Both the position numbers and the translations under genes were made by a program. Shown piece by piece: positions 12,417 to 43,702 of a stretch of DNA of 64,000 nt. The stretch is from an uncultured Deinococcaceae bacterium (GTDB lineage Bacteria > Deinococcota > Deinococci > Deinococcales > Deinococcaceae): assembly GCA_964252075.1 (NCBI GenBank), contig CAXULY010000029.1, positions 1-64,000 of the forward strand, read 5' to 3'. The notes beneath the pieces were generated by a model. That model saw nothing but the letters and a program-made list of their open reading frames with translations. It was not told where the DNA came from and made no database searches. Numbering within the stretch: the first letter of the stretch is position 1; each line of letters opens with the position of its first letter.

Positions 12417-12446
12417 GGCCCCCATGCTAGTGCTTTGGGTGTGGGT

Positions 12447-13841: not shown

Positions 13842-13898
13842 GCCCCGGAGTCTAGAGCGTGCGCCGTCCGCGGGGGTGGCGCACGCCGCGATCCCCGC

Positions 13899-14285: not shown

Positions 14286-14378
14286 ATCAGACCTCGCTCA
14301 GCGCGGGCGGGCGGCGCCACAAGCAGCCGGGCGCACCCACCCGCCGCGCTGAACGTCAGTGTAAACGTAAACCTCGCG

Positions 14379-15077
14379 TCAGCGGTGCACGTCCAGCTCC
14401 ACCTTGTAATTCCCGCGCCGCGTCTCGCTCACCACGCGCTTGAAGTCAATGCGGCCCAGGCCTTCCGCCGAGAGGCTGTCCCCCTCGCGGATGTCACTCG
14501 ACGCGCGCGCGAGTTGCCCGTTGATGCGCACCTTCCCGCCCTCGATGCCCTGCTGGAAGTACGCGCGGCTCACCCCGAAGCCCTTGGCGCCCACCACGTC
14601 CACCCGCATGGACGGCACCACGACTTCCCGCGTGCGGCTGGCCTTGCCGGCCGTCTCCCCCACCTCCTCCACGGACAGCTCCGCGTCACCCAGGCGCGGC
14701 GCGGCCTCCAGCGCCGCGCGGCCCTTCGGGGTGACGGCCAGCAGGTAACTTCCACCGCGCTCCTCGCGCAGGTCCCCCAGCTGGTCCTCCGGGATGCCCA
14801 GGCGCCGCAAGGCCACCGTCACGTCCTGCGCGTCCCAGCCGCCCGGGAAGTCCCCCATCAGGCGCAGCACCGTCACGCCCGCGTCCACCTGCGGGATGTG
14901 CGCCGGGTACAGCGTGAGCACCACCCGCCGCGCGTCCGGGAAGCCGCCCGCGAGCACGTACCGCACCTCGTCGTCGTTCAGCAGGCGGCGATCAATGGAC
15001 TCCCCGTCCACGAAGGCGGTACGCACCACGCGCCCGCCGCGCGCCTGACTCATGAGCGTGCTGAGCTTGTCTTTCAT
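14379..15077 (-). CDS. S4-domain RNA-binding protein (YlmH-like)
   Basis: GGFPDARR; C-terminal S4 motif SMRVDVVGAKGFGVSR..IEGGKVRING..GDSLSAEGLGR. Confidence 0.82.
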   Translation of the reverse strand: MKDKLSTLMSQARGGRVVRTAFVDGESIDRRLLNDDEVRYVLAGGFPDARRVVLTLYPAHIPQVDAGVTVLRLMGDFPGGWDAQDVTVALRRLGIPEDQLGDLREERGGSYLLAVTPKGRAALEAAPRLGDAELSVEEVGETAGKASRTREVVVPSMRVDVVGAKGFGVSRAYFQQGIEGGKVRINGQLARASSDIREGDSLSAEGLGRIDFKRVVSETRRGNYKVELDVHR

Positions 15078-15175
15078 GGCCCGAGTCTAGAGGACGCGCC
15101 GCGACCCACCACCCGCCAAAGGGCTCAGGCCGTTCAGGAAGCCTGCGTCGCCCCTCAATCTGGCATTGTGAACGC

Positions 15176-15715
15176 ATGAAGCGCTCTCGCCCGCCCGGCC
15201 TGCTCGGCGCCCTCGCCCGGCTGTTCGCCCTAACGCGCTTCATCGCGGAACTCGGCGTGCTGTCCAGCGCTGTGCTGTCCCTCGCCCTGTTCGCGCTGTC
15301 CATCCTGCGGCTGTGGCCGACCCTCGTGGGCGTCTTCTCGCACTTCGCGGACGACGACTCCGTCAAGCGCCTCCTCGTGAGCGCCGTCGAGCAGGCGGAC
15401 GTGCTGCTCGTCGCGACCGCCCTCCTCATCGTCAGCATCGGGCTGCAGGCGCTCTTCGTCGGCCGCTCCGACCAGCTGCCTGGCTGGCTGCACATCCACA
15501 CCTTCGACGACCTCAAGCAGAAACTGCTGGGCGTCGTCGCGGCGGCGCTCGCCGTGCGCTTCTTCTCCGCCGCCGTCGACTGGCACGGCGAGACCAGCAT
15601 CCTGCCGCTTGGCCTCGCCACGGCACTCGTGATGCTCGCCATCGCCGCGAACGTCCTCGTGAACGCCCGCAAGGGCCGCGCGGAAGCGCCAGCGGACGGG
15701 CCCACGGATGAGTAG
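15176..15715 (+). CDS. YqhA/UPF0114-family membrane protein
   Basis: Four hydrophobic helices; LPGWLHIHTFDDLKQKL motif. Confidence 0.75.
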   Translation: MKRSRPPGLLGALARLFALTRFIAELGVLSSAVLSLALFALSILRLWPTLVGVFSHFADDDSVKRLLVSAVEQADVLLVATALLIVSIGLQALFVGRSDQLPGWLHIHTFDDLKQKLLGVVAAALAVRFFSAAVDWHGETSILPLGLATALVMLAIAANVLVNARKGRAEAPADGPTDE

Positions 15716-15724
15716 ACTCAGGGC

Positions 15725-16123
15725 ATGCACATCGCCGACCCCCTAGGCGTGCCGGGCGCGCCCGCCGAAACCCTGAACGCCCTCACCTCGCGCTTCACGG
15801 GCTCGGACCTCACGGGCGCCCACCTCATCCTCATCACGGACGACCAGGGAAAGCGCGAAACCGCCCGCTACGCCGCCCTCATCACGACCGGCGGGGAAGC
15901 GGTGCTCACGGTGCCCGCCTTCGGACCGCGCTTCGGCCCGGACGGCACCCTCGCCCTGCGCGAACTCGCCCGCTGGGCGCGCGAGCACGGCCTGGAGAAC
16001 CTCAAGGAGACCGTCCTGAACCCCTCCGACTTCACCCGCGTGGTGGGCGAACCCGACGCCAGGGACGTCGCGCACCTCATCGCCGCCGCGAACCCCAGCG
16101 ACCTCGGCATTTACCTCAAGTAA
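15725..16123 (+). CDS. Conserved hypothetical protein (DUF3197-like)
   Basis: LITDDQGKRETARYAAL, AFGPRFG..ALRELARWA, AANPSDLGIY. Confidence 0.65.
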   Translation: MHIADPLGVPGAPAETLNALTSRFTGSDLTGAHLILITDDQGKRETARYAALITTGGEAVLTVPAFGPRFGPDGTLALRELARWAREHGLENLKETVLNPSDFTRVVGEPDARDVAHLIAAANPSDLGIYLK

Positions 16124-16129
16124 AGCCCG

Positions 16130-16312
16130 TCAGCCGCCCTTCGGCTCACCCTTCGCCGCGCGGCGGCAGCGGTCCGAGCAGTACCGCACCTGATCCCAGT
16201 CCCGCGCCCACTTCTTGCGCCACGTGAAGCTCAGGCCGCACGCCGCGCACACCTTCACGGGCCGCTCCGACGGCGGCCGCCCACCCCCGAACCCCCGCTC
16301 AGGCCGGGGCAC
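16130..16312 (-). CDS. DUF2256-domain small Cys protein
   Basis: [31 protein letters not shown]; start GTG 16312 is inferred. Confidence 0.82.
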
Positions 16313-16820
16313 GCGCCACCCCACGCAGCCACCCCTGCGCGCGCGCCGCCAGGTCATCCGGCGTGTCCTGGGCGCCCACCGGCAGGGTGAGCACCCCCTC
16401 GTCCAGCGCGGGTTCCTCCAGCGTGACCAGCTGACTGGGCAGCAGGTTCGCCTTCGCGTAATGCCCACGGCGGTGACTGAGGCGCTCGTTCAGCAACGCC
16501 TGCGGCACCTGCAGGTACACGAACCGCACGCCCGGCACGCGCAAGGTGTCCCGGTACGTGCGCTTGAGCGCCGAGCACGCCAGCACCACCGGCCCCTCCG
16601 TGGCGAGCAGGTCACGCAGGCGCGCCAGCCACGGCGCGCGGTCCGCGTCCGTCAGGCCCTCACCGCGCGCCATCTTGGCCTTCGCTTCCGGCGAGTGCTG
16701 GTCGTCGGCATCCACGAACCGCACGCCCAGGCGCGCCGCGAGCGCCTCGCCCGTGCTGGTCTTGCCGCTCCCCGTGACACCCATCACAACCACGGATGGA
16801 GAAACTGAATTGATGGTCAC
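16299..16820 (-). CDS. gntK: Gluconokinase
   Basis: [58 protein letters not shown]. Confidence 0.88.
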
Positions 16821-16859
16821 GGCCCCAGTGTGCCCCGCCCGCACCACGCACACCGTGAG

Positions 16860-16889
16860 AAAACGCCCCCAGCGAGATCGCTGGGGGCG
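16860..16889 (-). terminator. Intrinsic terminator closing the DUF11 operon
   Basis: Stem CGCCCCCAGCGA/TCGCTGGGGGCG plus TTTT on the minus strand. Confidence 0.8.
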
Positions 16890-16907
16890 CAGAAAAGCCA
16901 GAGACGC

Positions 16908-19900
16908 TTACGGCACCTGCGCCTTAAAGCACACCACACCTTTACCGGTCGAGGCCGCTACCGTCCCCACATTTACCGTGAGGTTCGTGGCGGTCAGGTC
17001 GCCCGCGTCGTCACCACTGGCAGAGGTCAGGGCCGTGCCAGCGGGCGCAGCCGTCGCGCCGCTCGCGAGCGAAGCGCCGTTCGCGTACAGAATGCCCAGG
17101 CCCGCGCCGTAGCCGTTCAGCTGAGCGGGGCCACTGGCGACGATGGTGTCCTTCAGGACCAGACTGGTCGCGTTCCCCGCCCCAGTGTTCGTGTACGCAA
17201 TGCAGTACTCCAGGTATTCGCCCGGCTTACCGACGGCGCCGGCACTGCTGAAGGTTCCAGTGTTGGAACTTAGGCTGGAGCCGATGTTGCGCACATACTT
17301 GGAGAGCGTGACGGACGGCGCCACAACCGTCAGGGTGGTGCGGGTCGGGTCGGACACGCCCGTCACCGTGGGGTCGTCGGTCGGCACGTTGACGCTCTGC
17401 TGCGAGACGACGCCCTGGTTGCTGATCGGGGATGCAACCCCCGAGTTGCCCACCTGCACCTGGAAGGTCACGGTCGCCGTGGCACCTGCCGCGAGCGTTC
17501 CCGCCACCTGCCCCGCGCTGTTGATGAGGGACGCCGTGCCGTAAGGATAGGACGAAGCGTTCAGGTTGGTGCCGTTGAGCGTCGCTGTGTTGGGAATATA
17601 GGTCAGCCCCGAAGGCAGCACATCCAAGAATTTGACATTGGCCGCCGCAACCGTCGTACTCGTGTTCTTGACCGCAATGGTGTAGGTGAGCGTGCCGCCC
17701 AGAGTGGTCGAGCTCGCAGAGACCGTTTTGGTCGCGGTCAGGTTCGGGTTAAAGCCGAAGTCCCGGGACGTGATGCTCGCACCGCCTGTCAGGGTCACGC
17801 TGTATGTCCCGGAGGCAGGGCTGATTAAAGTTGCATTTCCGAGATCAGGGTCGGTCTTGCGGATCGTCGCAGTGTATGGATCCGTGGGCACGTTCAGGAA
17901 GCTGTAGTTGCCGTTGGCGTCCGTGAAAGCTGTGCTGGTGATGCCGCTGCTGCTGTTGGTGAGCGTGACCGGGATGCCAGCGCCGAACCGCGAGTCAGGC
18001 GTGCTGAACGAGCTGCTGTTGTCCATGTCACCGTACACCGTGCCCGAAATGTTGCCCGTGGTGATGCCCGTACAGGTCGTCCACGACAGGTCGTCAAGTG
18101 CCAGGTCGTTGCCACCGCCACCACCGGTGTTGTTGCGGAAACGCACCGTAACCTCGCTGGCCGCGCCGGTGTTGACGAGCAGTGAGAAGTTCTTCCAGAT
18201 GGGCGCGTTGGTGTTGGCGATGTTGCCTGAGGTGAAGATGCTCTGCCCTTCACTGCCGTCGGCGGTCGCGGGGTTGTCGTCATCGTCCACGCCGGTGTAG
18301 TCCACCTCAATGGACACGTTGGGCACGATTCCGGCGTTGTTGGCGATCAGGTTCACGATCCAGCCGCCCACCTCATAGTTGGTATTGGGCGTCACCGCAA
18401 ACTTTTCTTGGTAGAACACGTTCGCGCTCAGATTGGCGTTCACCACCATCATCTGTCCAGTCGCGTTGCCGGTCGTGTGATCGCCAAGCACATGCCAGGC
18501 ACCGTCCTGGCGGTCACTGTCGAAGTTGGTGACTTCATACTCCCCGTCCTCAGGGCTGTAATTGCCTGGGGAAGCCACCTGGGTCCGGGTGTTGTATGTG
18601 TAGCCTGTGGAGCCCAGGGAACCTGTCGCCGCCAGGGTCCTGCGGGTCGGCGGGTTGGTGGACGAGCCAGCTGCCACGCTTCCAAAAGTGCCGTTCAACG
18701 AGAACAGGTTGGTGCCCAGCGTACCGCCATGGACCAAGCACGCCCCCGAAGGCTCAGCGATAAAAGGCATGGTGATGGTCGCGGGTGAAGGGTCCTGCTG
18801 GCCCGCCGCGTCCCTGGCCGCGACCTGAAAGCTGACGGTCAGCGCGCCGTTGCTGGTGGGGTCCACCTGCAGGCTGTTGACCACGTAAGCCGTGATGCAC
18901 TGCCCGGCGCTGACGACGACACTCTGATAGAACAGGGTGGCGTTGGTGGGCAGCGACGTGATGCAGAATGTGCTGCCCGCGCCAAGAGCACCGTCCTCAG
19001 GGTCGGTGCCCGTCAGGGTCGGAACCACGAACCGGCTCGTGCCCGAAGCGTTTTGCTGGCTGCTGGCGGTGGCTGAGGTCGTATCGGGCAGCTGTTCAAT
19101 GCCAAAGTTCTGCGCGGTGACGTTGGCCGCAGCGATGGTCACGGCAAGATTGCCATCAGCAGTGGCGTCCTTGGTGCCGTTGCTGTTCTCACCGGTATTG
19201 ACCCAATTGCTCGGCACGCTGCCCGTGGTTGGAGCGGTGCCGCCCACCGCCACGCTACCGTTCGTGCTGAGGCGCAGGGTGTAGGTGGTGTTGGTCAACA
19301 ACCCCCCGATGGTATAGGTTCCGTCAGTCGCACTGACTGTCGCTTTGCCCGCCACAGTGGTGCCATTCACGGCGTACACGGTCAGACTGCTCGTGCCTGC
19401 ATTCGTTCCAGCTTCACCCGTCGCGGCCTGCACGCCATCGCCATTTATGTCGTCAAAGACCGTTCCAGAGATGCTTGCGGTCACAAGTAGGGACGCACTG
19501 GCTGCTGCAGCGTTGGTTCCACCGGTGGTGTCTAATGCGCTAGCGGCGATAGTGTTGGTGTAGGTACCAACGCTAGAAGCAGTGACGCTCACGGTGATGG
19601 TGCATCCGCCCGCCGGAATCTTGCCTCCAGCATTCAACGTGATGGTACCTGTATTGATGCTAGCTGACACAGTGTTGCCCGTGATGGTGGTGCATGTGCC
19701 GCCCAAGTTGGGGGTGGCGGCAATCACCATGTTGCTGGGCGTGGTGGGAAGGTTATCGGTGAAGGTTGACTGCAGGTACACGGGCGCCAGGTTGGTGTTT
19801 CCTAGCGTGATGGTGAGTGTACTTGTCGCGCCTGGCGCGATGCTGTTAGGCGAAAAGCTCTTGGTGACCGTGGGCGAGTTGGGCAGGGTGGCGCAGGTGC

Positions 19901-20735
19901 CCAGGTCCGTCAGGGAGTCGCTGATGGTGGCACTTGGTGTGGCTCCGGTAACACCTGTAGTGGGATTCAGAGGGTAGATGCCGGGCAGCCCGGTGGTTGG
20001 GCCGGTGGCCGAACTGATCAAGAAGTTGCCGATCCTTGGGTCAATGGAAAGGCCGTTCACTGTGCCCGTCCAAGCCGTCGCAGCTGTGGACTTAATGGCC
20101 ACGGGGCTGGAGAGCAATCCGGTCGTCAGGTCCAGCTTGAACAGATAGGGACCGGCAACACCAGCAGTAGGCGTGGCGGTCGCCACGATGTAAGCCTGCC
20201 CAGCGCTATCGATGGCGAGGTCACCATTAGTGGTAGTGCCCAAGGTGTATCCAGTCGGAGCGGTAAAGGGCGTATAACTACCGCCTACGATGTTACCGCT
20301 TGCATCAACACGACCAAAAGTCTTGTTATTCAAATATACGTAATAGTTTCCTGAAGCGTCTGTGGTTCCACCGACAACCAAAACATTGGTTCCAGCCACT
20401 GTAGGCAGTGGGTTCAGCGTTCCAATACTGGTATCTACTAGAGTATTCGGATCAATATAGCGGACAGTATTGGTGTCCCGGTTGATGTAGTAGATGCGCC
20501 CGTTCGTGGGGCTCTGAGTAATAGCGTTGGAATTGGCCGAGGCAGCTGGAAAAAGCGGCACGATGGTGTTGTTGGTGTAGTTATAGATGCCGATCTGGTT
20601 GCTGGCCGCGCTGGTCATGGTGTAGGTGGCTGTACAGTAGCTCGCGGCAGCCTGGGCTGCGCCCATGAGGCCCAGCGCCACGGGCAGCAACCGCCGCAGC
20701 CGAATGAGGGACGACTTCACTGCATGCAGGTTCAC
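16908..20735 (-). CDS. Large secreted adhesin-like protein (propeller-like N-terminus, SdrD-B-like and DUF11 domains); putative tip subunit
   Basis: GTG start overlaps the upstream stop and has a GGAGG RBS; signal peptide ..LGLMGAAQA; ISGTVFDDINGDG and ISGTVYGD repeats; K..PG...TYTI..N..D.LP DUF11 repeats; Thr/Ser/Gly-rich. Confidence 0.82.
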   Translation of the reverse strand: MNLHAVKSSLIRLRRLLPVALGLMGAAQAAASYCTATYTMTSAASNQIGIYNYTNNTIVPLFPAASANSNAITQSPTNGRIYYINRDTNTVRYIDPNTLVDTSIGTLNPLPTVAGTNVLVVGGTTDASGNYYVYLNNKTFGRVDASGNIVGGSYTPFTAPTGYTLGTTTNGDLAIDSAGQAYIVATATPTAGVAGPYLFKLDLTTGLLSSPVAIKSTAATAWTGTVNGLSIDPRIGNFLISSATGPTTGLPGIYPLNPTTGVTGATPSATISDSLTDLGTCATLPNSPTVTKSFSPNSIAPGATSTLTITLGNTNLAPVYLQSTFTDNLPTTPSNMVIAATPNLGGTCTTITGNTVSASINTGTITLNAGGKIPAGGCTITVSVTASSVGTYTNTIAASALDTTGGTNAAAASASLLVTASISGTVFDDINGDGVQAATGEAGTNAGTSSLTVYAVNGTTVAGKATVSATDGTYTIGGLLTNTTYTLRLSTNGSVAVGGTAPTTGSVPSNWVNTGENSNGTKDATADGNLAVTIAAANVTAQNFGIEQLPDTTSATASSQQNASGTSRFVVPTLTGTDPEDGALGAGSTFCITSLPTNATLFYQSVVVSAGQCITAYVVNSLQVDPTSNGALTVSFQVAARDAAGQQDPSPATITMPFIAEPSGACLVHGGTLGTNLFSLNGTFGSVAAGSSTNPPTRRTLAATGSLGSTGYTYNTRTQVASPGNYSPEDGEYEVTNFDSDRQDGAWHVLGDHTTGNATGQMMVVNANLSANVFYQEKFAVTPNTNYEVGGWIVNLIANNAGIVPNVSIEVDYTGVDDDDNPATADGSEGQSIFTSGNIANTNAPIWKNFSLLVNTGAASEVTVRFRNNTGGGGGNDLALDDLSWTTCTGITTGNISGTVYGDMDNSSSFSTPDSRFGAGIPVTLTNSSSGITSTAFTDANGNYSFLNVPTDPYTATIRKTDPDLGNATLISPASGTYSVTLTGGASITSRDFGFNPNLTATKTVSASSTTLGGTLTYTIAVKNTSTTVAAANVKFLDVLPSGLTYIPNTATLNGTNLNASSYPYGTASLINSAGQVAGTLAAGATATVTFQVQVGNSGVASPISNQGVVSQQSVNVPTDDPTVTGVSDPTRTTLTVVAPSVTLSKYVRNIGSSLSSNTGTFSSAGAVGKPGEYLEYCIAYTNTGAGNATSLVLKDTIVASGPAQLNGYGAGLGILYANGASLASGATAAPAGTALTSASGDDAGDLTATNLTVNVGTVAASTGKGVVCFKAQVP

Positions 20736-23700
20736 TTGTTGCCTCCCTGTTCGTCGAGCAGCAGGTCCAGCCGGAGGTAGGGGCCGGGTCTGGTGAAGGT
20801 GGTGCCGAGGCCGTCGAAGCCCAGCACGTTGTACCCCACGGTCAGCCACGTGCCGGGCAGGGCGCGCAGGCTGCCCTCCAGGCCCAGACCGAAGAGGCTG
20901 GTGCCGGTGGCTGGTTGCACCAGGGCGCGCGCGCTGGCGCCCACGCCAAGGCGGTCGGTCACGTAGTACGTGCCGCCGAGGCTCGGCTGGTAGGTGAAGC
21001 TGCCGGGGTCGTCGAGGAGCACGCGGGCGTCGAGGCCGCCGCGGAGCGCCCAGGTGGCGCGGTGGTACTCGGCGGCGAGCTGCCCCATGAGTTGCGGCTG
21101 GTCACCGGCGAGGCTGCCGTTCTGGTAGCGCAGGTACCCGATGCTGTTCCACGCGCCGTCGCGCCACGCGTACCCGAGGGCGAGTTTCGTGCCGGGGGTG
21201 GCGCTGAGTTCGGTGAGGGCGTCGGCGGTGACGCTGAAGGTGCTGCTGAGGGCGCCGGTGGCGCCGGCGCGCAGGACGGTGCGCCATACGCCGGCGCTGT
21301 AGGCGAGGTCGCCGCCGGCGGTGGCGCTGAGGGTGGTGCTCTGGTAGCGGAGGTCGCTGCCGACGCTGAAGTCGTTCGTGCCGGCGGTCATGTCGCGCAG
21401 GTACGCGCCGCGCAGGCCGACGCTGAAGGTGCTGTTCAGGGGGAGGCTGGTGTCCATGCCGAAGCGGGCGCGGTTGCCGCTGCCGCTGGCGTTGGGGAGG
21501 TCGTACCCGACGGAGAGGTTGGTGCCGCCGAGGGTGGTATCGATGCCGAAGCTCGCGACGCTGCCGGTGTTCCAGTTGAGGTCCTCGGCGAGTTTCAGTT
21601 TGACGTTGGGGGTGAGGGCGTATTTCACGGCGAAGACCGTTTCGGGGTCCACGTTGCCGGTGAAGGGCTGGCTGTGCGTGACGTCGATGTCGAAGGGCGC
21701 GGCGTGGTAGCCGACGCCGAGGAGACCGCTGACGCCCATCTGGTCGCCGAAGCTGTAGCGCAGGCCGCCGCCGACCGTGAAGGGGTTCAGCTGGTAGTCC
21801 ACGCGCGCGGCGAGGTCGCCCTGGTGGCTGTCGGGGCCGCTGGTGTAGGTGCCGCCGAGGCTGGCGCTGAGGCTGGGCGCGAGTTGCTGGCGCAGCTGGG
21901 CGCTGGCGCTGGTGCCGACCGCGATGGGCGCGAGGCCCGCGTAGGTGGCGTCCTGGTACGCGGCGCGCGCGCTGAATTCGGTGCTGCCCGCCTTGCCGCT
22001 CACGTCGGCGCTGGCCTGCAGGCCTCCGCCCTGCGTGAGGACCTGGGCGCTGCCGCTGAGGTTCGCGCCCGCGAAGCTGGCGCGCGCGCCCGCAGTGAGT
22101 TTGCCGTCGAGGTTCACGGCGGCGACGCCGACGCTCGTCGCGCCGTTCGTGTACTTGGCCTGCGCGCCGTACGCGAGGGCGCGGTTCGCGCCGCCGTCGT
22201 TCAGGCGGTACGCGGCCTGCACCACGAGGGTGTTGAGTTGCGCGTCGGTGCGGGCGAGGGCCTGGGAGAGCGTGACCACGCCGGTGCCGGTGTCGAGGCT
22301 GTAGTCGGCGTAGCGGGTGAGCGTGCGGCGAGAGAGTTCCTGGCCCGTCACGCGGTCGAGCGTGAGGAGTTCCAGCGTCTCGGAGTCCGGGACGATGTCG
22401 CCGTGCGCGAGGCGCAGGAGGCGCGTGCCGTTCGGGGTGAGGCGCTCGCCGGTGATCTGGTCGCTGGAGATGAGGGCCGCGAAGCCGCCCACCTGCACGT
22501 TGCCTTTGGTGCTGAAGCTGAGCGCCGTGACGCTCTCCCCGAGGGGCAGCACGTCGATGGGGGTGGGGCTCAGGCGGTACTGCGCGCTGAAGGCGGGGTG
22601 GTCGTAGCGGAAGGCGATGGGGTCCTGACCTTCGAGCGGCACGCTTTCGGTGCTGGCGTCGCCGTACAGGGGGTAGCGGGTGTTGGGGTTGGTGCTGGTG
22701 GGCAGGCCGTCCTTGTTGCCCGCGGCGTACAGTTTGCCGCTCCCGAGGGTGCCCTCGAAGTAGCCTTTGGCGCTCCAATGGAAGTCCACGGCGCCGCCGC
22801 TGAGGCCGACGGTGGCGCTCGCGGCGCCCACGCCGAGCGCGCCGACGTCGGGGCGGATGGGCAGACTGACGCGCTGCACGCGGTCACTCACCGCGAACTC
22901 CAGTTCGAGGGTGGTGGGCGCGCTCTGCGGCGGGAGGATCAGTTCGCCCTCGCCGTCCTTGAGCGCCACCTGGTAGCCGCCCTGGCTGGGGTCGGCGTCC
23001 GCCTGCGCGGACTCGATGGAGGAGCGCACCGTGACGGTGGGTTGCGCGGTGGTGAGGCCGGAGGCGTCGAGGACGCGCAGCTTGAAGCGCAGCGGGGTGC
23101 TGCCGTCCGCGAGGCCCTGCACGGCCTGCACGTCCACGCGCTCGGCCTGCCCGGCGTAGTACACCTTGACCTGCTCGCCCCCCAGCACGAGGGTGTTCAC
23201 GCCCGTCTTGAGGCGAATCCCGAAGTACGTGACGCGTTCGGTGCCGGCGCTGCTGTCCACGTCGCGCTGCCCGATGGCGCTGTCCGGCAGGGCCTCGCCG
23301 TTGATGCGCGGCCCGAGGGTGGCGCCGCTGGGGCCCTGCACCACGACCGTGATGCGGTCGCGGTCGCGGATGACAGTGCCGTCCAGGGGGAGGCGCAGGG
23401 CGCCGGGGTTCTCGGCGGTCTGCCCGCTGGCGGTGGGCGTTGCGGCGGCGTAGTCCTGGAGGTCGAAGGGCCCCTGCAGGACCTCCTGGCGGTCGCGGGG
23501 GTAGCGCGCGAAGAGCGCGGGCAGCGGCAGGGCGCCGAGCGCGTCGGTGTGCGTGACGCGGTACGTGATCACGCCGCGCCCGGTGGGCGTGATCGGCCAG
23601 TACAGGCGCCCGCCCTTGCCGACCAGCGGGTCGGGGATGGGCTGGCCGTTCAGGGCGCTGGTGCCGGGCAGGTACGTCGCGCCTGCGGGGAGCGTCTGGG

Positions 23701-23887
23701 CGATCACCAGGGCGGTCGCCTCGACGGGCGCGTCGAAGGGAACCTCCAGGCGAGACTCGCGCGTGACGGCGTTCGTCGCGTCGGTGGTCGCGGGTGCGCT
23801 CAGGGGGGCGGCGGGGACGGTGGGCGCGTTCTGAGCGGCGGCCCCCACCAGCAGCGAGGCCATCAGCAGGGCAAGGGCGCCTCTCAC
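20732..23887 (-). CDS. Large outer-membrane beta-barrel protein with periplasmic Ig-like domains (usher-like)
   Basis: Signal peptide; YPLYGDAS motif; roughly 500 C-terminal residues of alternating amphipathic strands ending WLTVGYNVLGF..GPYLRLDLLLDE. Confidence 0.75.
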   Translation of the reverse strand: MRGALALLMASLLVGAAAQNAPTVPAAPLSAPATTDATNAVTRESRLEVPFDAPVEATALVIAQTLPAGATYLPGTSALNGQPIPDPLVGKGGRLYWPITPTGRGVITYRVTHTDALGALPLPALFARYPRDRQEVLQGPFDLQDYAAATPTASGQTAENPGALRLPLDGTVIRDRDRITVVVQGPSGATLGPRINGEALPDSAIGQRDVDSSAGTERVTYFGIRLKTGVNTLVLGGEQVKVYYAGQAERVDVQAVQGLADGSTPLRFKLRVLDASGLTTAQPTVTVRSSIESAQADADPSQGGYQVALKDGEGELILPPQSAPTTLELEFAVSDRVQRVSLPIRPDVGALGVGAASATVGLSGGAVDFHWSAKGYFEGTLGSGKLYAAGNKDGLPTSTNPNTRYPLYGDASTESVPLEGQDPIAFRYDHPAFSAQYRLSPTPIDVLPLGESVTALSFSTKGNVQVGGFAALISSDQITGERLTPNGTRLLRLAHGDIVPDSETLELLTLDRVTGQELSRRTLTRYADYSLDTGTGVVTLSQALARTDAQLNTLVVQAAYRLNDGGANRALAYGAQAKYTNGATSVGVAAVNLDGKLTAGARASFAGANLSGSAQVLTQGGGLQASADVSGKAGSTEFSARAAYQDATYAGLAPIAVGTSASAQLRQQLAPSLSASLGGTYTSGPDSHQGDLAARVDYQLNPFTVGGGLRYSFGDQMGVSGLLGVGYHAAPFDIDVTHSQPFTGNVDPETVFAVKYALTPNVKLKLAEDLNWNTGSVASFGIDTTLGGTNLSVGYDLPNASGSGNRARFGMDTSLPLNSTFSVGLRGAYLRDMTAGTNDFSVGSDLRYQSTTLSATAGGDLAYSAGVWRTVLRAGATGALSSTFSVTADALTELSATPGTKLALGYAWRDGAWNSIGYLRYQNGSLAGDQPQLMGQLAAEYHRATWALRGGLDARVLLDDPGSFTYQPSLGGTYYVTDRLGVGASARALVQPATGTSLFGLGLEGSLRALPGTWLTVGYNVLGFDGLGTTFTRPGPYLRLDLLLDEQGGNK

Positions 23888-26637
23888 GGGTTCCTCCAGG
23901 TGACGTTGGGATCGGTGACGGCGCGCTCGCTGGCCCCGTCGAAGTGGAAGTGGTAGGTGAGGGTGGTGCCCTCGGCGGTGACGCCCACGAGGTCCAGCAC
24001 GTTCTGACCGTCCGTGAGGGTGGCGCCTGCGGGCAGCGGGTCATCCAGGTGCAGCGGGCCGCTGGCGGGGTTGGAGGTGAGGGTGAGGGTGACGGTGTAG
24101 CGGCCGTCCTCGTCCTGCGTGACCTGCTTGCGCACGGTGAGCGGCCCAACGCGCAGGGTGGTGTCGCGGAAGGCGCTCGCCTCGCCCTCCAGGGCGGCCA
24201 GCGGGAAGTCCACGCTGGTGAGGCCGCGCGCGTACACGCCCCGGCTGCCGGGTCGCCCGCCGTCCTGCGGCAGGCTGAGCGGCGCGTACGGCACGCTCGC
24301 GGGGTCCAGGCGCAGGGCGGTGAAGCCCTCCGGGACGTTCGCGAAGTGGTAGCGGCCCGACGCGTCCGTCAGCACGATGCGGCCGTCCGCGAGCACGATG
24401 CGGGCGCGCTCGATGGGGGTGTCGAGGTCCGCCTGGAAGACACCGTCGCGGTTGCGGTCCACGAACACCACCCCGATGAGGTCCGCGAGGGTGGAGAACA
24501 TACCGGGGCGCAACTTCAGGCGCGCGCGCGCCTCGTTCGAGGCGACCACGGAGCCGTTCACGCCCTGCCCCATCACACTCACGACGTTCACGAGCTCACC
24601 GTTCGCTTCGGGCGTGACGCGCACGGCGTAGGTCAGCACGACCTCGCCCTGCGGGGCGAGCGCACCGAGCGTCCAGGTGAGGACGCGGCCCGCGACCTGC
24701 GGGTCGCCGAGCGGCTGGCCGCCCAGCTGCGCGCTGCCGGGGATGTACGTCACGCCGGCGGGCAGGGTGTCCGTGATGGTGAGGGTGTTCAGGTGGCCGG
24801 CCTGCGAGAGGTTGCGGATGTGCACCGTGTAATCCAGGCGGTCCCCGACGGTCGCGTCGAGCGGCGTGACGCTCTTGCTCACGGCGAGCGCCGCGGACCA
24901 CACGGGGCTCGTCACGGTGGGGGAACCGAGCGGCGCGGGGAACTGATCGCCGCCCAGCGTGAAGGTGTTGGTGATGCGGTCGCCGTCCTTGGCGTCCGCC
25001 GCGACGGTCGCCTGAATGGTCAGGCGGCGCGTCTCGCCCGGCGCGAGCGACGCGACGGTCCAGACCACGGCGCCATCCTGCAGGGCGCCGCCATCGGAGG
25101 CGCTCACGAAGGTCAGGTCGCTGGACAGCGGGTCGCGGATCACGACGCCCGTGAGGGGCACGTCGTAGGGGTTGTGCACGCTGAGGGTGTAGGTGAGGGC
25201 CTGACCCGCGGTGACCTGACCCGTGGGGTCCACGGTCTTCTGGAGTTCCGGCAGGCGGGACTCAATGCGGCTGATGGTGTCGGTGGTGCTGTTCGTCGTG
25301 CCGCGCGTTCCCGTCGCCGTGAGGACCAGCTTCAGGGCGTCGCTGCCCGCGGGCTTCACGCACACCTGGAAGCTCAGGGTCTGACCGGGCTCCAGGTGGA
25401 CGGGCTGCGCGATGGGCGCGCCGTCCGTGGTGAGGAGGCTCACGTCGCCGGAGCCCGCCGCGAGGGTGGGCGCCACCGTAAAGTCATCGGTGACGTTCCC
25501 AGTGTTCTGGATGGTCTGCGTGAAGCACACGGTCTGCCCCACCACGCCGAAGTCCTTCGACTGCGTGTCCTGCGCGCTGCCCTCGGGCGCCGTGGGGTTG
25601 CCGACCGGCCCGAGCGCGACGCCCGGCGTGAAGCGCACGTCCAGGGTCGCGCCCGCCTGCCCGCCCGGAACGCCGCTGGACGTGACGGTCGCGAGGTTCC
25701 GCAGCGTCTTGTTCTCCGCGGCGGCGGAGGTAAGCAGCTGGAAGGTCAAGGTGGCGCGCGCGCCCGGCGCGAGGCTCGGCACGCGCAGGCGAATGCCCGC
25801 CACCGCGCCGCCCGCGCTGGCGGAGTACGTCGCGCCGTCCGCGCTGTACTCCACGGTGCCGACGCTGGCGCTCGCGCTGCCCGCCACGAAGGTCGCGCCG
25901 GACAGCGCGGCGGTGTTCAGGGGGTCCGTGACGATCACTTCACGCGACGCGCCCTTGCCGCCGTTCGTGACAGTCAGCGTGACGGTGCTGGCCTCGCCGG
26001 GCTTCACGAGCGCCGGGCTGAAGGACTTGCTGAGGGCCAGGGCGGGCGGCTGGCCCACCAGGACCGCCGCGTAGTTGTTCGTGTCGCCGGCGCCATCACC
26101 GCACGAGGCGTTCAGGCTGACGAACGCCCCATCCCGGTCGCTGTCGGCGGTGGAGACGACCATCAGCAGCTTCGCGGACTGATCGGCGTCCAGCGTGACG
26201 CTGGACGCCTCGGGCTCGCCCGCATCGAGCGCGCCATTGCCGTTGCTGTCCAGGTAGATCTTGACGCCCGGCTGGAAGGCCGAGGTGCGGTCAACCACGC
26301 TGGCGAGCGCGAAGGTGTTGCTCTGGTTGCCCGCGTTCAGCACGCTGTACGAGAAGATCGCCTGCTCTCCCGGCAGGATACTCGCCGTCTGACCGGGCTG
26401 GTCGGGCGTGCCGTCCGGCGTCACGCTCACCGCGCACACGCCACTCACGGTGGTCGTGACCGTGGTGGACACGTCCGAGATGGCCGCGCCGTCCGCATCA
26501 ATGGCGGCGACGCTCGCCTGGTTCGTGATGACCGTATCGGCTGGCGTTCCGCCAGCGAACGCCGCGCTGTGCAGGCTCAGACTGAGCGCTGCCAGACACG
26601 GCGCGAGCACGGTGATGAGGGTGGACTGTTTGCGCAC
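23884..26637 (-). CDS. Secreted multi-DUF11 protein with an SdrD-B-like C-terminal domain; putative base or adaptor subunit
   Basis: GGAGG RBS and GTG 26637; signal ..SAAFA; three complete DUF11 repeats; GVVFVDRNRDG..TDASGRYHF. Confidence 0.82.
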   Translation of the reverse strand: MRKQSTLITVLAPCLAALSLSLHSAAFAGGTPADTVITNQASVAAIDADGAAISDVSTTVTTTVSGVCAVSVTPDGTPDQPGQTASILPGEQAIFSYSVLNAGNQSNTFALASVVDRTSAFQPGVKIYLDSNGNGALDAGEPEASSVTLDADQSAKLLMVVSTADSDRDGAFVSLNASCGDGAGDTNNYAAVLVGQPPALALSKSFSPALVKPGEASTVTLTVTNGGKGASREVIVTDPLNTAALSGATFVAGSASASVGTVEYSADGATYSASAGGAVAGIRLRVPSLAPGARATLTFQLLTSAAAENKTLRNLATVTSSGVPGGQAGATLDVRFTPGVALGPVGNPTAPEGSAQDTQSKDFGVVGQTVCFTQTIQNTGNVTDDFTVAPTLAAGSGDVSLLTTDGAPIAQPVHLEPGQTLSFQVCVKPAGSDALKLVLTATGTRGTTNSTTDTISRIESRLPELQKTVDPTGQVTAGQALTYTLSVHNPYDVPLTGVVIRDPLSSDLTFVSASDGGALQDGAVVWTVASLAPGETRRLTIQATVAADAKDGDRITNTFTLGGDQFPAPLGSPTVTSPVWSAALAVSKSVTPLDATVGDRLDYTVHIRNLSQAGHLNTLTITDTLPAGVTYIPGSAQLGGQPLGDPQVAGRVLTWTLGALAPQGEVVLTYAVRVTPEANGELVNVVSVMGQGVNGSVVASNEARARLKLRPGMFSTLADLIGVVFVDRNRDGVFQADLDTPIERARIVLADGRIVLTDASGRYHFANVPEGFTALRLDPASVPYAPLSLPQDGGRPGSRGVYARGLTSVDFPLAALEGEASAFRDTTLRVGPLTVRKQVTQDEDGRYTVTLTLTSNPASGPLHLDDPLPAGATLTDGQNVLDLVGVTAEGTTLTYHFHFDGASERAVTDPNVTWRNP

Positions 26638-26736
26638 GGGGCCTCCGGGAACAGCGCTCAGTGGGGCGCGGGAAAGGGCGGGGTACTCAGGCTCAAAACG
26701 GTGTTCTGCTGTTGGGGTGACGCCAAAGGTGAGGTG

Positions 26737-26762
26737 GGCGCGCACCATTGGTGGTGCGCGCC
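26737..26762. promoter_or_regulatory. Intra-operon stem-loop after the putative major subunit gene
   Basis: 11-bp stem GGCGCGCACCA/TGGTGCGCGCC, 8 nt after the stop, with no U-tract. Confidence 0.6.
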
Positions 26763-26770
26763 GGGATGGG

Positions 26771-28792
26771 TCAGTTGACGGTGACCTTGAAGGTCTCGGT
26801 GATGCCCTGACCGGGCTTGAGGATGTCGAGGGTCGAGATGGTGTTGTCGTTGTTGGTGTCGATGCCGATCTCCACCAGCTGGCCTGCCGTGGGGGCCGTC
26901 GTGGGGGTCGTGGAGGTCTGCCAGGCACCGCCATTGAAGCGGTACAGCAGTTTGTAGCCGGTGGTGCCGTAGGCGTTGGTGTCGGTGATGCTGGCCGTCA
27001 CGCTCGCGAAGGTGGTGTTCGTGGGCACCGTGTCCTTGAGGATGTAGTTGGTGAGGTTGCTGTTGTTGGTGTTGCTGGCCGCGATGGTGTAGGTCAAGGT
27101 GGCGCCAGGAGCCGCGTTCGTGAGGTCAACCGTCTTGGCGGGCTTGTAGGAGTTCGCCGTGATCTGAACGGTGAACTTGTCGTTGTTGTCCGTCGAGGTG
27201 GCGCCCGTCGTGGCGGAGGTCGCCGTTTGCGTGAGGGTGTACGTGCCAGGCAGGGTGTTTTGCGGGACGTTGACCTGAGCGACCACGCAGTACGTGGCGC
27301 CCGCGGCGAGCGCGCCCGTGCTGGTGATGGCGGTGGTGTTGTCCGCCACGCCGTCGCAGTTGGCGTCCGCGTAGTACGTGACGGGCGTAGCGGTGGTGCC
27401 GGTCGGGGTGGTGATGTTCACCGTGCCCGTCAAGCTGAAGGTGTCCGGCGCGGTGCCGTTGTTCTTGACGACCATCGGGAAGGTGGTAGGGGTGGTGCCC
27501 GTGGCGGCGCCCGTGGTGGTCACCGTGTTGTTCGGCGTGCCGGGCGTCGGGGTGCCGTTCACGCTGTCGGTGAACTGCACGCTCGGCAGGTTCACGATGT
27601 TGGTGGTGGTGTCCGTGCCGCCTGTGCCGGTGCCGCCGTTCGTGGTCAGGCTGTTCTCACTGGTGCTGGTCACGGTGGCCGTGAAGGGCGCGGTGGGGCT
27701 GGTGGGAACCGAGCCGGCGGGGTACGTCACCGTGACGTAGAAGGTGTACTCGCCTGCCAGTCCCGGATTGACGGTGGGCGTCTTGGTGATGGGGCTGGTG
27801 CCAGCGGCATCGGAGGAGATGGTCACGGTCGCGCCCGTCGGGGCGTTGCTCAGGGCCGCCGTCAGGTCGAAGATGTCCGGGCGGTTGCCGTTGTTGACCA
27901 CCGAGTTCTTGAAGGTCACGCTGGTGCTGGTGGTGGTGGCCTGCGCGTTCTGGCTGTCGCCGTTGTAGTTGATGGTCACGCCGCCCTGGGTGTAGGGCGT
28001 GACGGCGGTGGTGTTCGCGGGGTCGAGTTTGCCGTCCGCGTCCGCATCGGTGTTTGGGCCGACCTTGCCCGCGTCGGTGCGGGAGAGCGTGACCTGGTTG
28101 AAGTTGTTGGCGTCCTGGTTCAGGTAGGGGGCGGTGGTGCCCGCAATGGCGACGGTCGAGGTGTAGCTGGTGCCGGTGGCGCCTGCGGGGTCATAGGTGC
28201 CGGAGCCCACCGGGTCGGCGCCCAGTTTGGTGCCGTTGGCCGAGTTGGCGCCGGTGGCGGGGACCACATACCGCTGAATGAGCTTGACGGTCGCGTTACC
28301 GGTGGTGTTGTTCGCCACCACAACGCTGGTGACCGCCGTGGCACCTTCGGTGCCATCCAGCACACCGTTGCCGTTGGTGTCCACGAAGTACTGAACGCCC
28401 GTGATGCCGCTGGTGGTGCTGAGGGCACCGTTCACCGAGTACAGGGTGGACAGCGTCACCTGAACGGGTGTGTTGCCCGTGTTCGTGACGGTGTACGGGA
28501 AATCCACGGTCGCGCCTGGCAGCGTGTTCGTCTGGCTCTGGCCGGGGGTGGCGGGGTGCGGCCCGAGGTCGGCACTGGAGTCGTTGGGGGTGATGGTGAA
28601 GGTCGGGACGGCGCTCACCGTGGTGGTCACGGTGTTGGAGTCGATCGGTGTCTGGGCCGTGCCGGTCGCGTCATTGAAGGTGGCGGTGGCGGTGTTGCTG
28701 ATCTGCGTGCCAGCGGAAGTGCCGCCGGCGGCGAGGGCAGAGCCGGCGGCCAGGGCGGCCATCACGGCGATGAGCTTGCTGTACTTGTTCAC
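26771..28792 (-). CDS. Secreted Thr-rich Ig-fold/DUF11 protein; putative major filament subunit
   Basis: GGAGGA RBS and GTG 28792; signal peptide ..AAGSALA; N-terminal AGTQISNTATATF; repeated V.N.GN..D.F.L units; C-terminal DUF11 ending FKVTVN. Confidence 0.85.
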   Translation of the reverse strand: MNKYSKLIAVMAALAAGSALAAGGTSAGTQISNTATATFNDATGTAQTPIDSNTVTTTVSAVPTFTITPNDSSADLGPHPATPGQSQTNTLPGATVDFPYTVTNTGNTPVQVTLSTLYSVNGALSTTSGITGVQYFVDTNGNGVLDGTEGATAVTSVVVANNTTGNATVKLIQRYVVPATGANSANGTKLGADPVGSGTYDPAGATGTSYTSTVAIAGTTAPYLNQDANNFNQVTLSRTDAGKVGPNTDADADGKLDPANTTAVTPYTQGGVTINYNGDSQNAQATTTSTSVTFKNSVVNNGNRPDIFDLTAALSNAPTGATVTISSDAAGTSPITKTPTVNPGLAGEYTFYVTVTYPAGSVPTSPTAPFTATVTSTSENSLTTNGGTGTGGTDTTTNIVNLPSVQFTDSVNGTPTPGTPNNTVTTTGAATGTTPTTFPMVVKNNGTAPDTFSLTGTVNITTPTGTTATPVTYYADANCDGVADNTTAITSTGALAAGATYCVVAQVNVPQNTLPGTYTLTQTATSATTGATSTDNNDKFTVQITANSYKPAKTVDLTNAAPGATLTYTIAASNTNNSNLTNYILKDTVPTNTTFASVTASITDTNAYGTTGYKLLYRFNGGAWQTSTTPTTAPTAGQLVEIGIDTNNDNTISTLDILKPGQGITETFKVTVN

Positions 28793-28824
28793 TGTTCCTC
28801 CTGAAAAGGGCTGGGCGGCGGGCA

Positions 28825-29325
28825 TCATTGGACTTTCACGCGAAGGTTGAGCTTGAGGGCCTGAGCGCCACCGAAGGTGGGCAGGGTCCAGCGGACGTTG
28901 GTGTACTCGGTGGGGGAAACAGTGACCTCCTTGGTGACGCTCTTGCCGTTCTCAACCTTCGTGACGGTGCGTTTGAGCGGCGGCACACCATAGGTCTTGC
29001 CACCGTCGAAGCTGAATTCCGTGGTGGCGCCCTGAGGTGCGCCCGTCTGGGACATGTAGGTGGTGCCCTTGGGTACAGGGAGTTGCAGGCGCACGTTCGT
29101 CAGGGCGGCGCTGCCCGTGTTGCTGACCTGCAGTTGCTGCTCCAGCACGTTGCCGGGCGTGGTTTCCTTGGGGGACGTCACGAGGGCTTCCTGGGTCTTG
29201 CCGTCCTTGGTGATGGTCTGCACGAGGAACTGGCTGAGCACCAGCTTCAGCGGGCTGCTGGCCTGCTGCGCAGCGGCGATGCCCGCGAGGGCGAGGGCGA
29301 CGGAGAGGAAGCGGCGTTGGGGCAT
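28825..29325 (-). CDS. Small secreted single-DUF11-like protein; putative chaperone
   Basis: Signal peptide; PGNVLEQQLQVSNTG..L.LPVPKGTTY..FSFDGGKTYG..YTNVRWT..LRVKVQ; RBS AAGGAG. Confidence 0.8.
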   Translation of the reverse strand: MPQRRFLSVALALAGIAAAQQASSPLKLVLSQFLVQTITKDGKTQEALVTSPKETTPGNVLEQQLQVSNTGSAALTNVRLQLPVPKGTTYMSQTGAPQGATTEFSFDGGKTYGVPPLKRTVTKVENGKSVTKEVTVSPTEYTNVRWTLPTFGGAQALKLNLRVKVQ

Positions 29326-29393
29326 GGTGTTCTCCTTGGGGGCGGGGTGGCCTGCATGACAAGAGGTGCGACCGAAGACAGCAGGGGGTGCCT

Positions 29394-29469
29394 GTCAGCC
29401 GTGGTCGCACCACTGGCTCCACGTCTGACAGGTGCCCGAATACACCAGACGCTTCATTGCCTTGCTGAC
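29394..29469 (-). ncRNA. c-di-GMP-II riboswitch
   Basis: Minus strand reads GTCAGC-AAGGCAATGAA-GCGTCTGG-TGTATTCGGGCACCTG-TCAGACGT-GGAGCCAGTGGTGCGACC-ACG-GCTGAC. It shows the P1 and P2 helices, the AUGAA/GGAG kink-turn-like element and the GCACC/GGTGC pseudoknot of the class II consensus as I recall it. Confidence 0.85.
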
Positions 29470-29772
29470 GAAAGTCTATGGACCCAGGTCTTACATTTCT
29501 CTTACCTTTTGTCATTTCTCACGAAACTTAGCTTAACGAGGCCGTCGGGCTTCGCATTTTGTGCTGCCCGAGGGGATAAGAAGTAGGGAAAATATCCCGT
29601 TGTTGTCGCTGCGTCTTCCTCACGAGGGCTTCACGCGTCCGTCAGGTGCTCAACGGATTCTCATTTAAGCGAGCCCACTCAGGGAACATACACGCATCCG
29701 GCAGATTTGGATGTTGCATGGCGCAGCGCGCAACTCTTTCGCGTGCTGGAGGCATTCCAGCTCACAGCGCAC

Positions 29773-29809
29773 AATAAAAATGAGGCGGACCCTGACCGGG
29801 TCCGCCTCA
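29773..29809 (-). terminator. Intrinsic terminator after carA
   Basis: TGAGGCGGACCC/GGGTCCGCCTCA followed by TTTTTATT. Confidence 0.85.
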
Positions 29810-29828
29810 CCTAACCTTCACTAAAATT

Positions 29829-31013
<1,185 letters not shown>

Positions 31014-37661: not shown

Positions 37662-38153
37662 TCAGCGCAGGTCGTAGTTCACGCCGAGGCGCAGGCCGAA
37701 GCCAATCCCGACCGCCGCGCCGCTGGCGGAGCTGCCGCTGGAGCTAGCGCGCGCGAAGGCGATGCTGGGCCCCACGGAGCCCTCCACGAAAGGGGTGAAC
37801 CGGCTGGCGGTGTTGAAGTTCACGCCAATCAGGGCGTTGGGGTACAGGCTCACGCCGGTGGCGCTGCTGCCGCCGCCCGTGGCCACCGCGAGGCCCAGGC
37901 CGAGGCCGAAGCCGTAGTAGGGGCTCACGCTGTCGCTGCCGCCGTTCAGGGGTAGCAGGTAGGACACGTCGCCGCTGATGCCCAGCACGCCGCCACCCTG
38001 GAACAGGCCGACGACGGGCAGGCCCAGGCCGTAACGCAGGCCGTTGTCCTGCTGGTACTGCGCGCCCACCAGGAAGAACCCGACCTGGTCGGCGGCGGCG
38101 GTGGAGGTGAGGGTCAGGGCGGTGGCGGCCAGCATGAGCTTCATGGTCTTCAT
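37662..38153 (-). CDS. Small outer-membrane beta-barrel-like protein
   Basis: Signal peptide ..TSTAAA; SPYYGFGLG, GVNF, PFVEG; C-terminal GLRLGVNY strand. Start codon uncertain. Confidence 0.7.
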   Translation of the reverse strand: MKTMKLMLAATALTLTSTAAADQVGFFLVGAQYQQDNGLRYGLGLPVVGLFQGGGVLGISGDVSYLLPLNGGSDSVSPYYGFGLGLGLAVATGGGSSATGVSLYPNALIGVNFNTASRFTPFVEGSVGPSIAFARASSSGSSASGAAVGIGFGLRLGVNYDLR

Positions 38154-38248
38154 GAGGAGCATCTAAGCATGCGCAGCGTCCACTTGTACAGGCCTCATGA
38201 GACGCCACCCATTGTCCCGCTCTCCTCCCATTCACCCGACGTGGCCTG

Positions 38249-43605: not shown

Positions 43606-43702
43606 GAGGGCGTCAGCCCACGGACACCCAGCATGAGCTGACTGCACTGTGGTCTTTGGCTTTCACTCACGGCGCGCTCATTGCGAGTATTCTCATGGAC
43701 AG

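Follow-up and report, generated by a model that had tools for sequence, protein, structure and literature searches.

A truncated DUF11/CLIPPER-like protein devoid of isopeptide residues at the head of a putative fibre operon of Deinococcota, a candidate reversible chaperone for donor strands

The chaperones PapD and FimC hold pilus subunits in a non-polymerised form until the outer-membrane pore catalyses strand exchange (PMC11821415, PMC9715654). We analysed a 64,000-nt stretch of DNA from an uncultured Deinococcaceae bacterium (contig CAXULY010000029.1 of assembly GCA_964252075.1, positions 1 to 64,000; hereafter the window), in which a small gene, g1, heads a putative fibre operon composed of g1 to g5. 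The job that we tentatively propose for the g1 protein is like that of PapD and FimC, namely keeping a subunit assembly-competent and non-polymerised. However, its polarity would be opposite, as PapD donates a strand to the groove of the subunit, whereas g1 would accept a strand from the subunit. In addition, g1 has one domain rather than two and no spare strand to donate, and the final product would here be covalent. No match to the PapD family (PF00345/PF02753) was found among the Pfam hits of g1 at E≤0.1.

Non-classical chaperones of donor-strand-exchange pili have been described outside the chaperone-usher family. In Enterococcus faecalis, the chaperone ElrE primes the subunits of such a pilus, the WxL pilus (bioRxiv 10.64898/2026.10.17.759780), like the proposed g1. 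Nevertheless, it supplies the strand, is anchored in the membrane and belongs to DUF916/DUF3324, and its system is sortase-anchored and confined to Bacillota, unlike the g1 operon. BsaA of Clostridium perfringens, a member of the TasA family, follows a ‘donor-strand exchange and lock’ scheme with an N-E-K triad: its N-terminal Asn strand enters the next monomer, in which a Lys makes the lock with a Glu as the catalyst, and paralogues devoid of the triad are not expected to cross-link (PMC11580942). The putative shaft protein g2 of our operon appears to obey the same logic, with an N-terminal Asn strand entering the sheet of its neighbour and the Lys and acid of the recipient making the lock. 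However, the fold of BsaA is TasA/camelysin-like and not CLIPPER, its host is Gram-positive, and neither a dedicated inert acceptor nor an outer-membrane component is described for that system. The archaeal thread filament, which combines donor strands with isopeptide bonds, parallels the shaft logic of g2 as well, with an unrelated fold and in the absence of an outer membrane (PMC9715654). Its putative cap Saci_0405, proposed to be located at one filament end, is a small accessory protein encoded beside the major subunit of the filament, like g1, but it carries a donor tail and is devoid of an acceptor site, whereas g1 has the reverse (PMC9715654).

In sequence, g1 is related to the DUF11 domains, lately renamed CLIPPER. 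Crystallography showed that the Lys of strand A in such a domain forms an intramolecular isopeptide bond with a late Asn, a reaction catalysed by an Asp (Lys715/Asp748/Asn806 in 9IFR), and some DUF11 domains are reported to be devoid of isopeptide residues (PMC12617251). g1 is homologous to the CLIPPER/DUF11 domain (PF01345, TIGR01451, 9IFR) by its match to TIGR01451, and three canonical Lys/Asp/Asn copies are found in g3, close to g1. Unlike CLIPPER domains, however, g1 has neither the last two strands nor any residue of the triad, and unlike the CLIPPER repeats of stalks, it represents a whole mature protein of 146 residues, with a long strand-A hairpin and a 30-residue insertion. The elements of g1 are as follows, in window coordinates:

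28825..29325, minus strand: g1, the feature under study, coding for a secreted, 166-residue, single-domain DUF11/CLIPPER-like acceptor protein (open reading frame and translation)
29332..29337, minus strand: ribosome-binding site AAGGAG of g1, 6 nt 5' of the ATG (read from the sequence)
29266..29325, minus strand: signal peptide of g1, residues 1-20 (sequence pattern, read without a predictor, and low model confidence)
29230..29232, minus strand: Gln32 codon, at the position of the strand-A isopeptide Lys (domain alignment)
29080..29082, minus strand: Leu82 codon, where the ‘D.LP’ motif has the catalytic Asp (domain alignment)

A first-pass annotation of this DNA had described the 166-residue g1 product as a single truncated DUF11-like domain ending at LRVKVQ, and the open reading frame, profile matches and alignments agree with this description. 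The TIGR01451 model (DUF11-type repeat) scored 27.3 bits with g1, above its cut-off of 24, and the Pfam DUF11 model (PF01345) scored 23.8 bits, just below its cut-off of 24.6. A profile built from g1 also matches thousands of DUF11 repeat proteins, via positions ~52-100. The AlphaFold2 model of g1 is a single domain of ten strands with a long strand-A hairpin at residues 26-40/43-50 (mean predicted local distance difference test score, pLDDT, 88.3; predicted template modelling score 0.74). Its sole low-confidence part is the signal peptide (pLDDT <50 for residues 1-4 and 6-20), whose translation, MPQRRFLSVALALAGIAAAQQ, shows a Sec-type pattern. Structural alignment of g1 with 9ifr_A using VIA-align gave a Z score of 7.3 and a root-mean-square deviation of 2.9 Å over 91 residues, a Z score that unrelated immunoglobulin (Ig)-like domains reach as well (top Z 8.8). 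Foldseek searches of the PDB with the g1 model yielded nothing at E≤0.001, and the best hit of the g1 family profile among all PDB sequences had an E value of 0.22. The model also resembles 7wrk_A, the 160-residue hypothetical protein TTHA1873 of Thermus thermophilus (Z 7.2 over 100 residues). As the g1 family profile finds no match to TTHA1873, this likeness has no sequence backing and probably reflects merely a common Ig-like arrangement.

When g1 is aligned with DUF11 domains taken from g2, g3 and g5, the Lys column is occupied by Q32 of an LSQ motif and the Asp column of ‘D.LP’ by L82 of LQLPVP, as the annotation had proposed. The g1 protein stops directly after strand F, which corresponds to ‘..LTYAVRV’ of complete domains, exactly like the C-terminal domains of g2 and g5. 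Both the Asn strand and the strand that follows it are therefore absent from g1. Where the annotation had assumed one missing strand, the last two are lacking, as in a CnaA-like fold with the Asn on the penultimate strand. It had rightly noted that g1 has no donor strand: the mature N-terminus leads directly into strand A, and strand F closes the C-terminus. g1 has none of the three residues of the intramolecular Lys-Asp-Asn triad, and its architecture is that of an incomplete Ig domain whose C-terminal strands are gone, leaving a groove. In silico, the description of g1 as a non-reactive acceptor domain is well supported, and binding of donor strands is predicted by modelling, as described below.

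The annotation had suggested aligning homologues to look for a systematic loss of the Lys and Asp residues. We aligned 97 small proteins of the g1 family (150-230 residues). No Lys is present in the Lys column (Q 48, T 9, R 9, S 8, L 5, G 4, D 3 and others) and no Asp or Glu in the Asp column (L 52, V 19, I 8, M 7, A 3, Q 3, G 3, F 1, T 1), the latter being hydrophobic in 87 of the 97 members. The C-terminal end falls at the exact position of that of g1 in 92/97. Two members, P0109 and P0131, have a Lys and an acid, each displaced by one residue. We regard them as out of register, since a residue shifted by one position on a β-strand would face the other way. On these counts, the loss of the Lys and Asp residues is systematic and not due to chance. 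We also looked for a structurally equivalent pair elsewhere in g1, but dismissed all candidates: K53 is in the predicted interface described below, but a Lys is found there in just 40/97 members; E46 is conserved (94%), yet outside that interface; and D107, E125 and E140 are located in the distal insertion.

A strong terminator-like hairpin (29812-29778) closes the carA-like gene upstream of g1, so that g1 opens its own transcription unit. It is followed on the same strand by four genes, g2 to g5. No sigma-70-like promoter site was detected in a scan of positions 16000-30000, which is uninformative for this phylum. The downstream genes and their relevant segments are as follows:

26771..28792, minus strand: g2, Thr/Ser/Asn-rich putative shaft protein (open reading frame; likely GTG start after an AGGAGG site)
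28559..28729, minus strand: mature N-terminal donor hairpin of g2, with the Asn codon at 28694-28696 (alignments and predicted docking into g1)
26774..27163, minus strand: C-terminal acceptor domain of g2, Lys and Asp kept, Asn strands absent, end ‘..FKVTVN’ (domain alignment)
23884..26637, minus strand: g3, a putative base/terminator with a donor hairpin at the N-terminus, three DUF11 domains with the complete K/D/N set, an SdrD_B match and a C-terminus that is closed (start uncertain)
20732..23887, minus strand: g4, 1051 residues, N-terminal Ig-like domains and a large C-terminal region (no Pfam family match)
16908..20849, minus strand: g5, large, variable, adhesin-like protein, a putative tip (start uncertain)

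Past its signal peptide, g2 begins with ‘GTSAGTQISNTATATFND...SNTVTTTV’, which resembles the two final strands of DUF11 domains, together with their Asn. This donor hairpin follows the pattern ‘GT.AGT.I.N.A.A.F.D...SN.V.T.V’ with an invariant Asn: in eight aligned g2 donors, the Asn (8/8) and 14 further positions are invariant, and among 29 full-length g2 homologues the Asn is found in 28, with a gap in the remaining one. At its other end, the C-terminal domain of g2 harbours the Lys in ‘PAKTVD’ and the Asp in ‘ILKDTVP’ and stops exactly where g1 stops. In the same 29 homologues, the socket Lys and acid are conserved throughout (Lys 29/29; acid 29/29, with D in 24 and E in 5), and all end at the truncated position. 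The same gene termini recur across the ten operons whose gene ends were compared. The BsaA-like combination of an Asn on the donor with a Lys and an acid in the acceptor is thus present in g2 and missing from g1. The splitting of the triad between the two ends of g2 implies that the subunits polymerise head to tail via their donor strands, with an isopeptide bond between neighbours as the lock.

We searched all six-frame open reading frames of the same genome with a hidden Markov model of the g2 donors, which matched g2 alone, as did a strict donor-motif scan. The donor-like N-terminus of g3, ‘GTPADTVITNQASVAA..’, is visible by eye but too divergent for this model. In the AlphaFold2 model of full-length g2, the donor segment is ordered (pLDDT 90, 86 and 77 for residues 31-60) and is followed by a disordered linker (pLDDT 31 and 40 for residues 61-80), a pattern compatible with docking of the donor in cis in the modelled monomer. 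In addition to its canonical DUF11 domains, g3 matches the isopeptide-domain model TIGR04226. The C-terminal DUF11 domain of g5 has a Lys (‘LSKYV’), an Asp (‘LKDTIV’) and a truncated end (‘..CFKAQVP’), and no donor motif was found at the g5 N-terminus. From these sequence features, we infer a head-to-tail polymer with g5 as the tip (socket only), g2 as the shaft (plug and socket) and g3 as the base (plug only). g1 is the only member of the operon with a socket but no lock.

The last domain of g3 (23884-24150) keeps the Lys (‘VRKQV’) and the Asp (‘LDDPLP’), and the C-termini of its homologues in L014-L024 have a final strand ‘TDP..SWRY’ without a conserved Asn. This domain may be unlinked, or else cross-linked elsewhere, e.g. 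to the N-terminus of g4. As for g4, it is syntenic and 38-52% identical in 11 of 12 loci, with no named protein among its neighbours in the protein atlas. Its sequence suggests that the C-terminal region might form an outer-membrane β-barrel, making g4 a putative pore. In most relatives (L014, L015, L018-L021, L023 and L024), the g4 homologues have ~1600 residues, with an extra N-terminal part of ~500 residues (‘..ISTSLPLTSVGD.L.W.VGDQDL..’) that is absent from g4 of the window and of L016 (~1050-1070 residues). The presence or absence of this part defines two architectural variants of the putative pore. At another locus, L013, there are apparently two tandem g2-type shaft genes (11607-14042 and 14376-16481) between g1 and g3.

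A word-based search retrieved 24 homologues of g1, all the named ones from Deinococcus, and a profile search of 1.84 billion representatives detected many more small proteins with full-length matches. At E≤1e-15, a g1 homologue is found in 287 of 364 Deinococcota genomes, or 286 of 363 without the unpublished genome G324, and in 217 of the 263 high-quality genomes. By family, the counts are 119/124, 10/19, 9/23, 48/68, 100/128 and 0/1. Multiple copies occur in many genomes. The gene order g1-g2-g3-g4 is conserved in 11/12 Deinococcaceae loci and in 5/6 loci of three other Deinococcota families. Overall, one g1 gene heads the operon in 16 of 18 loci. The two exceptions, L022 (G009:C1:1965500-1985000) and L030 (G259:C1:2780500-2800000), are orphan g1 copies with no g2, g3, g4 or donor-like neighbour. 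The orphan g1 of L022 is closely similar to the operon-linked g1 of the same genome (L021, G009).

More divergent members of the g1 family with lower GC contents also exist, one of them in a deltaproteobacterial metagenome-assembled genome (MAG). This locus (L031; JAGVNP010000311.1, 8974-18351) represents a three-gene version of the system outside Deinococcota, in which the gene of a small inert acceptor comes first. The product of the second gene has 1001 residues, a donor at its N-terminus and a truncated socket with Lys and Asp that ends in ‘..VIFKVKIQ’. That of the third has 1782 residues, likewise an N-terminal donor, and peptidoglycan-binding domains, namely two OmpA domains and one SPOR domain. 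The latter protein fits the role of a plug-only base anchor that we ascribe to g3. No g4-like gene and no g5-like tip gene was found within the 18.5 kb examined at this locus. Look-alike clusters of small DUF11 proteins are labelled Pseudomonadota in the protein atlas, of which this one genome context was examined.

We predicted the structure of a complex between residues 21-166 of g1 (alignment A1) and the 57-residue g2 donor (alignment A2), along with three controls. The interaction prediction score from aligned errors (ipSAE) had a median of 0.85 (0.85, 0.85 and 0.86 in the three runs), compared with 0.00 to 0.02 for the controls with unrelated partners. In a benchmark of this score, the mark was reached by 116/157 solved complexes and 2/215 mismatched pairs, but these counts are only a rough guide here, because custom alignments were used as input. 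The runs share ≥96% of their contacts, and the pLDDT of the partner is ≥90. Donor residues 10-21, i.e. the Asn strand, pair with g1 residues 73-83 in the strand bearing Leu82, and donor residues 29-41 pair with g1 residues 24-32 in strand A, which bears Gln32. The donor residue A14 contacts g1 residues 28, 30, 65, 80 and 82, at the very site of the absent Lys and Asp. The hairpin is thus predicted to insert between strand A and the ‘LPVP’ strand, in the place that the two final strands would take in a CnaA-like domain. The model lends support to binding between g1 and the donor without proving it. The first-pass proposal that g1 binds donor strands without cross-linking them is thus partly supported, by the alignment as regards the lack of reactive residues and by the predicted complex as regards binding.

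We also considered a second conserved binding surface at g1 residues 105-146. As part of the distal motif FS.DGG.TY recurs in the g2 socket (‘YRFNGGAW’), we do not claim such a surface, and the motif probably has a structural role instead of forming a binding site of its own.

Beyond the truncation, the loss of Lys and Asp, the split triad of g2 and the conserved synteny, which are established from the sequences, we propose the following mechanism. g1 would act as a chemically inert, secreted ‘socket’, i.e. a CLIPPER/DUF11 domain minus its last two strands, with Gln32 in place of the Lys and Leu82 in place of the Asp. The fibre subunits would join head to tail by donor-strand complementation and then lock via an intermolecular Lys-Asn isopeptide bond, each junction rebuilding one complete CLIPPER domain. 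g1 would accommodate the donor hairpin of these subunits between strand A and the ‘LPVP’ strand without being able to lock it. In the periplasm, it would cap the donor of freshly exported g2, and perhaps that of g3, and thereby block irreversible self-cyclisation or premature polymerisation. At the putative g4 pore, a reactive socket would take the strand from g1, and the covalent bond would make this hand-over one-way. There is a mechanistic case for a cap, in that a subunit whose plug and socket are both reactive can undergo irreversible cyclisation or polymerisation once folded. The main argument for this reading, however, is that the other junctions keep the lock and the relatives of g1 have lost it in 97/97 cases, as though non-covalent binding were the property under selection. 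A permanent part of the fibre should keep the lock, and its universal loss argues that non-covalent binding is the point. The periplasmic location of g1, the reversibility of its binding, the hand-over and its role against polymerisation are inferred features of this scheme. That g1 is a reversible chaperone for the donor strands of the fibre is the reading that best fits the data, and we put it forward tentatively, as plausible rather than probable.

Several observations weigh against the chaperone reading. A serious caveat is that the predicted complex essentially rebuilds the intact CLIPPER fold, the structure of which has already been solved (9IFR), and the high ipSAE may therefore reflect fold memory rather than affinity. 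With ~100 predicted contacts, the complex would be very stable, which would suit a permanent cap at least equally well. The interface residues are not better conserved than the others (mean frequency of the top residue 0.50, vs 0.52 elsewhere), and 16 of the 19 most conserved positions are outside the interface, including S105, D107, G109, P116, Y141, R145, W146 and R162. The prediction covered g1 with the g2 donor as the sole donor. Furthermore, the reactive sockets of the operon would compete with g1 for the donors, so that a cap is not necessarily needed, and the orphan copies of L022 and L030 have no fibre genes nearby.

The main rival to the chaperone reading is a structural role, in which g1 would be a minimal subunit at the distal end, either a cap or an initiator, and would shield for good the free N-terminal donor hairpin of the first g2 in a fibre. 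Its counterpart in chaperone-usher pili would be the pilin domain of the tip adhesin, and g1 would be kept in place by strand complementation only. A filament built with donor strands is stated to require a subunit at its end that shields the terminal tail (PMC9715654), and an acceptor groove without a donor, as in g1, is the architecture of a distal-end subunit. The stability suggested by the predicted contacts is in line with this role, as are the high variability of the g5-like tip genes and the lack of one in the 18.5 kb of the deltaproteobacterial locus. Nevertheless, g5, an acceptor-only protein with intact Lys and Asp, already suits the tip position, and there is no evident reason for a permanent or load-bearing cap to lose both lock residues in 97/97 proteins. 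The position of g1 as the first gene of the operon is also unusual for a one-per-fibre part, although this is a weak argument. Finally, g1 is similar in composition and conservation to g3 and g4, and not to g2 and g5, which are exposed. Thus, identities across loci are 40-53% for g1, 39-52% for g3 and 38-52% for g4, as said, but lower, 28-41%, for g2, and charged residues make up 17.1% of g1, 15.3% of g3 and 16.2% of g4, vs 8.6% of both g2 and g5. This likeness of g1 to the conserved ‘machinery’ genes g3 and g4, and not to the variable, Thr/Ser/Asn-rich g2 and g5, lends weaker support to the chaperone reading. Taken together, we consider a permanent cap unlikely.

It is also conceivable that g1 binds no donor and is a degenerate, stand-alone Ig-like protein of the envelope, for instance one that is associated with the cell wall or that acts together with the g4 pore. 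In that case, the model would have completed a fold familiar to it, and the predicted complex would be spurious. The confident AlphaFold2 monomer obtained without a donor (pLDDT 88.3), the reported DUF11 domains devoid of isopeptide residues (PMC12617251) and the location of most of the highly conserved positions outside the predicted interface are in keeping with this possibility. Nevertheless, the fixed truncation of g1 right before the strands carried by the N-termini of g2 and g3 would otherwise be hard to explain, the controls with unrelated partners had scores close to zero, and the conserved distal motif, found in part in the g2 socket, is probably structural. We regard this explanation as improbable.

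Lastly, g1 might be a regulatory decoy acceptor that sequesters the g2 or g3 donors to set the number or length of the fibres or to delay termination by g3, rather than to protect the subunits, a proposal that shares the predicted binding and is in silico indistinguishable from the chaperone reading, and that could accommodate the several g1 copies common in genomes and a change of dosage by orphan copies such as L022 beside L021 in G009, but which we rate as quite improbable, given that one g1 gene heading 16/18 loci looks like a fixed component and not a tunable regulator.

Elsewhere in the window, the open reading frame at 37662-38162 (minus strand) also codes for 166 residues, with a signal-peptide-like start, an alternating pattern rich in Gly, Ser and Ala and the end ‘..GVNYDLR’. 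From its sequence, its product looks like a small outer-membrane β-barrel protein, unrelated to g1 despite their equal length. Two adjacent paralogous genes (43649-44779 and 44901-46007, plus strand) code for membrane proteins with GGDEF-type C-terminal ends (‘..RWGGEEFLLILPG..’).

Donor-strand pili and isopeptide pili are both known, but in the full-text literature searched, from which subscription journals were excluded, we found no description of this operon or of a split-CLIPPER fibre, nor of a diderm fibre that combines both principles via a split self-locking domain. It is possible, although we advance it with more reserve than the function of g1 itself, that g1 founds a new class of pilus chaperones of polarity opposite to that of PapD, being an inert version of the socket of the subunit itself, together with an undescribed, covalent split-CLIPPER donor-strand pilus of diderms that occurs in nearly all Deinococcota and in at least one MAG of deltaproteobacterial origin. 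A self-locking subunit raises a problem foreign to classical pili, in that a premature or intramolecular encounter is irreversible, and the conserved, disarmed socket encoded by the leading gene of the operon would be a natural way to solve it. The nearest known functional analogue is engineered: in the SpyCatcher/SpyTag pair, derived from a split CnaB2 domain, the non-reactive ‘SpyDock’ is a catcher minus its reactive residue that binds the tag strand reversibly, which is the behaviour proposed for g1, with the differences that SpyDock is not natural and that one strand is split off and not two. If our proposal is true, g1 would be a natural counterpart of such engineered reversible tag-catcher pairs, from heat- and radiation-tolerant organisms.

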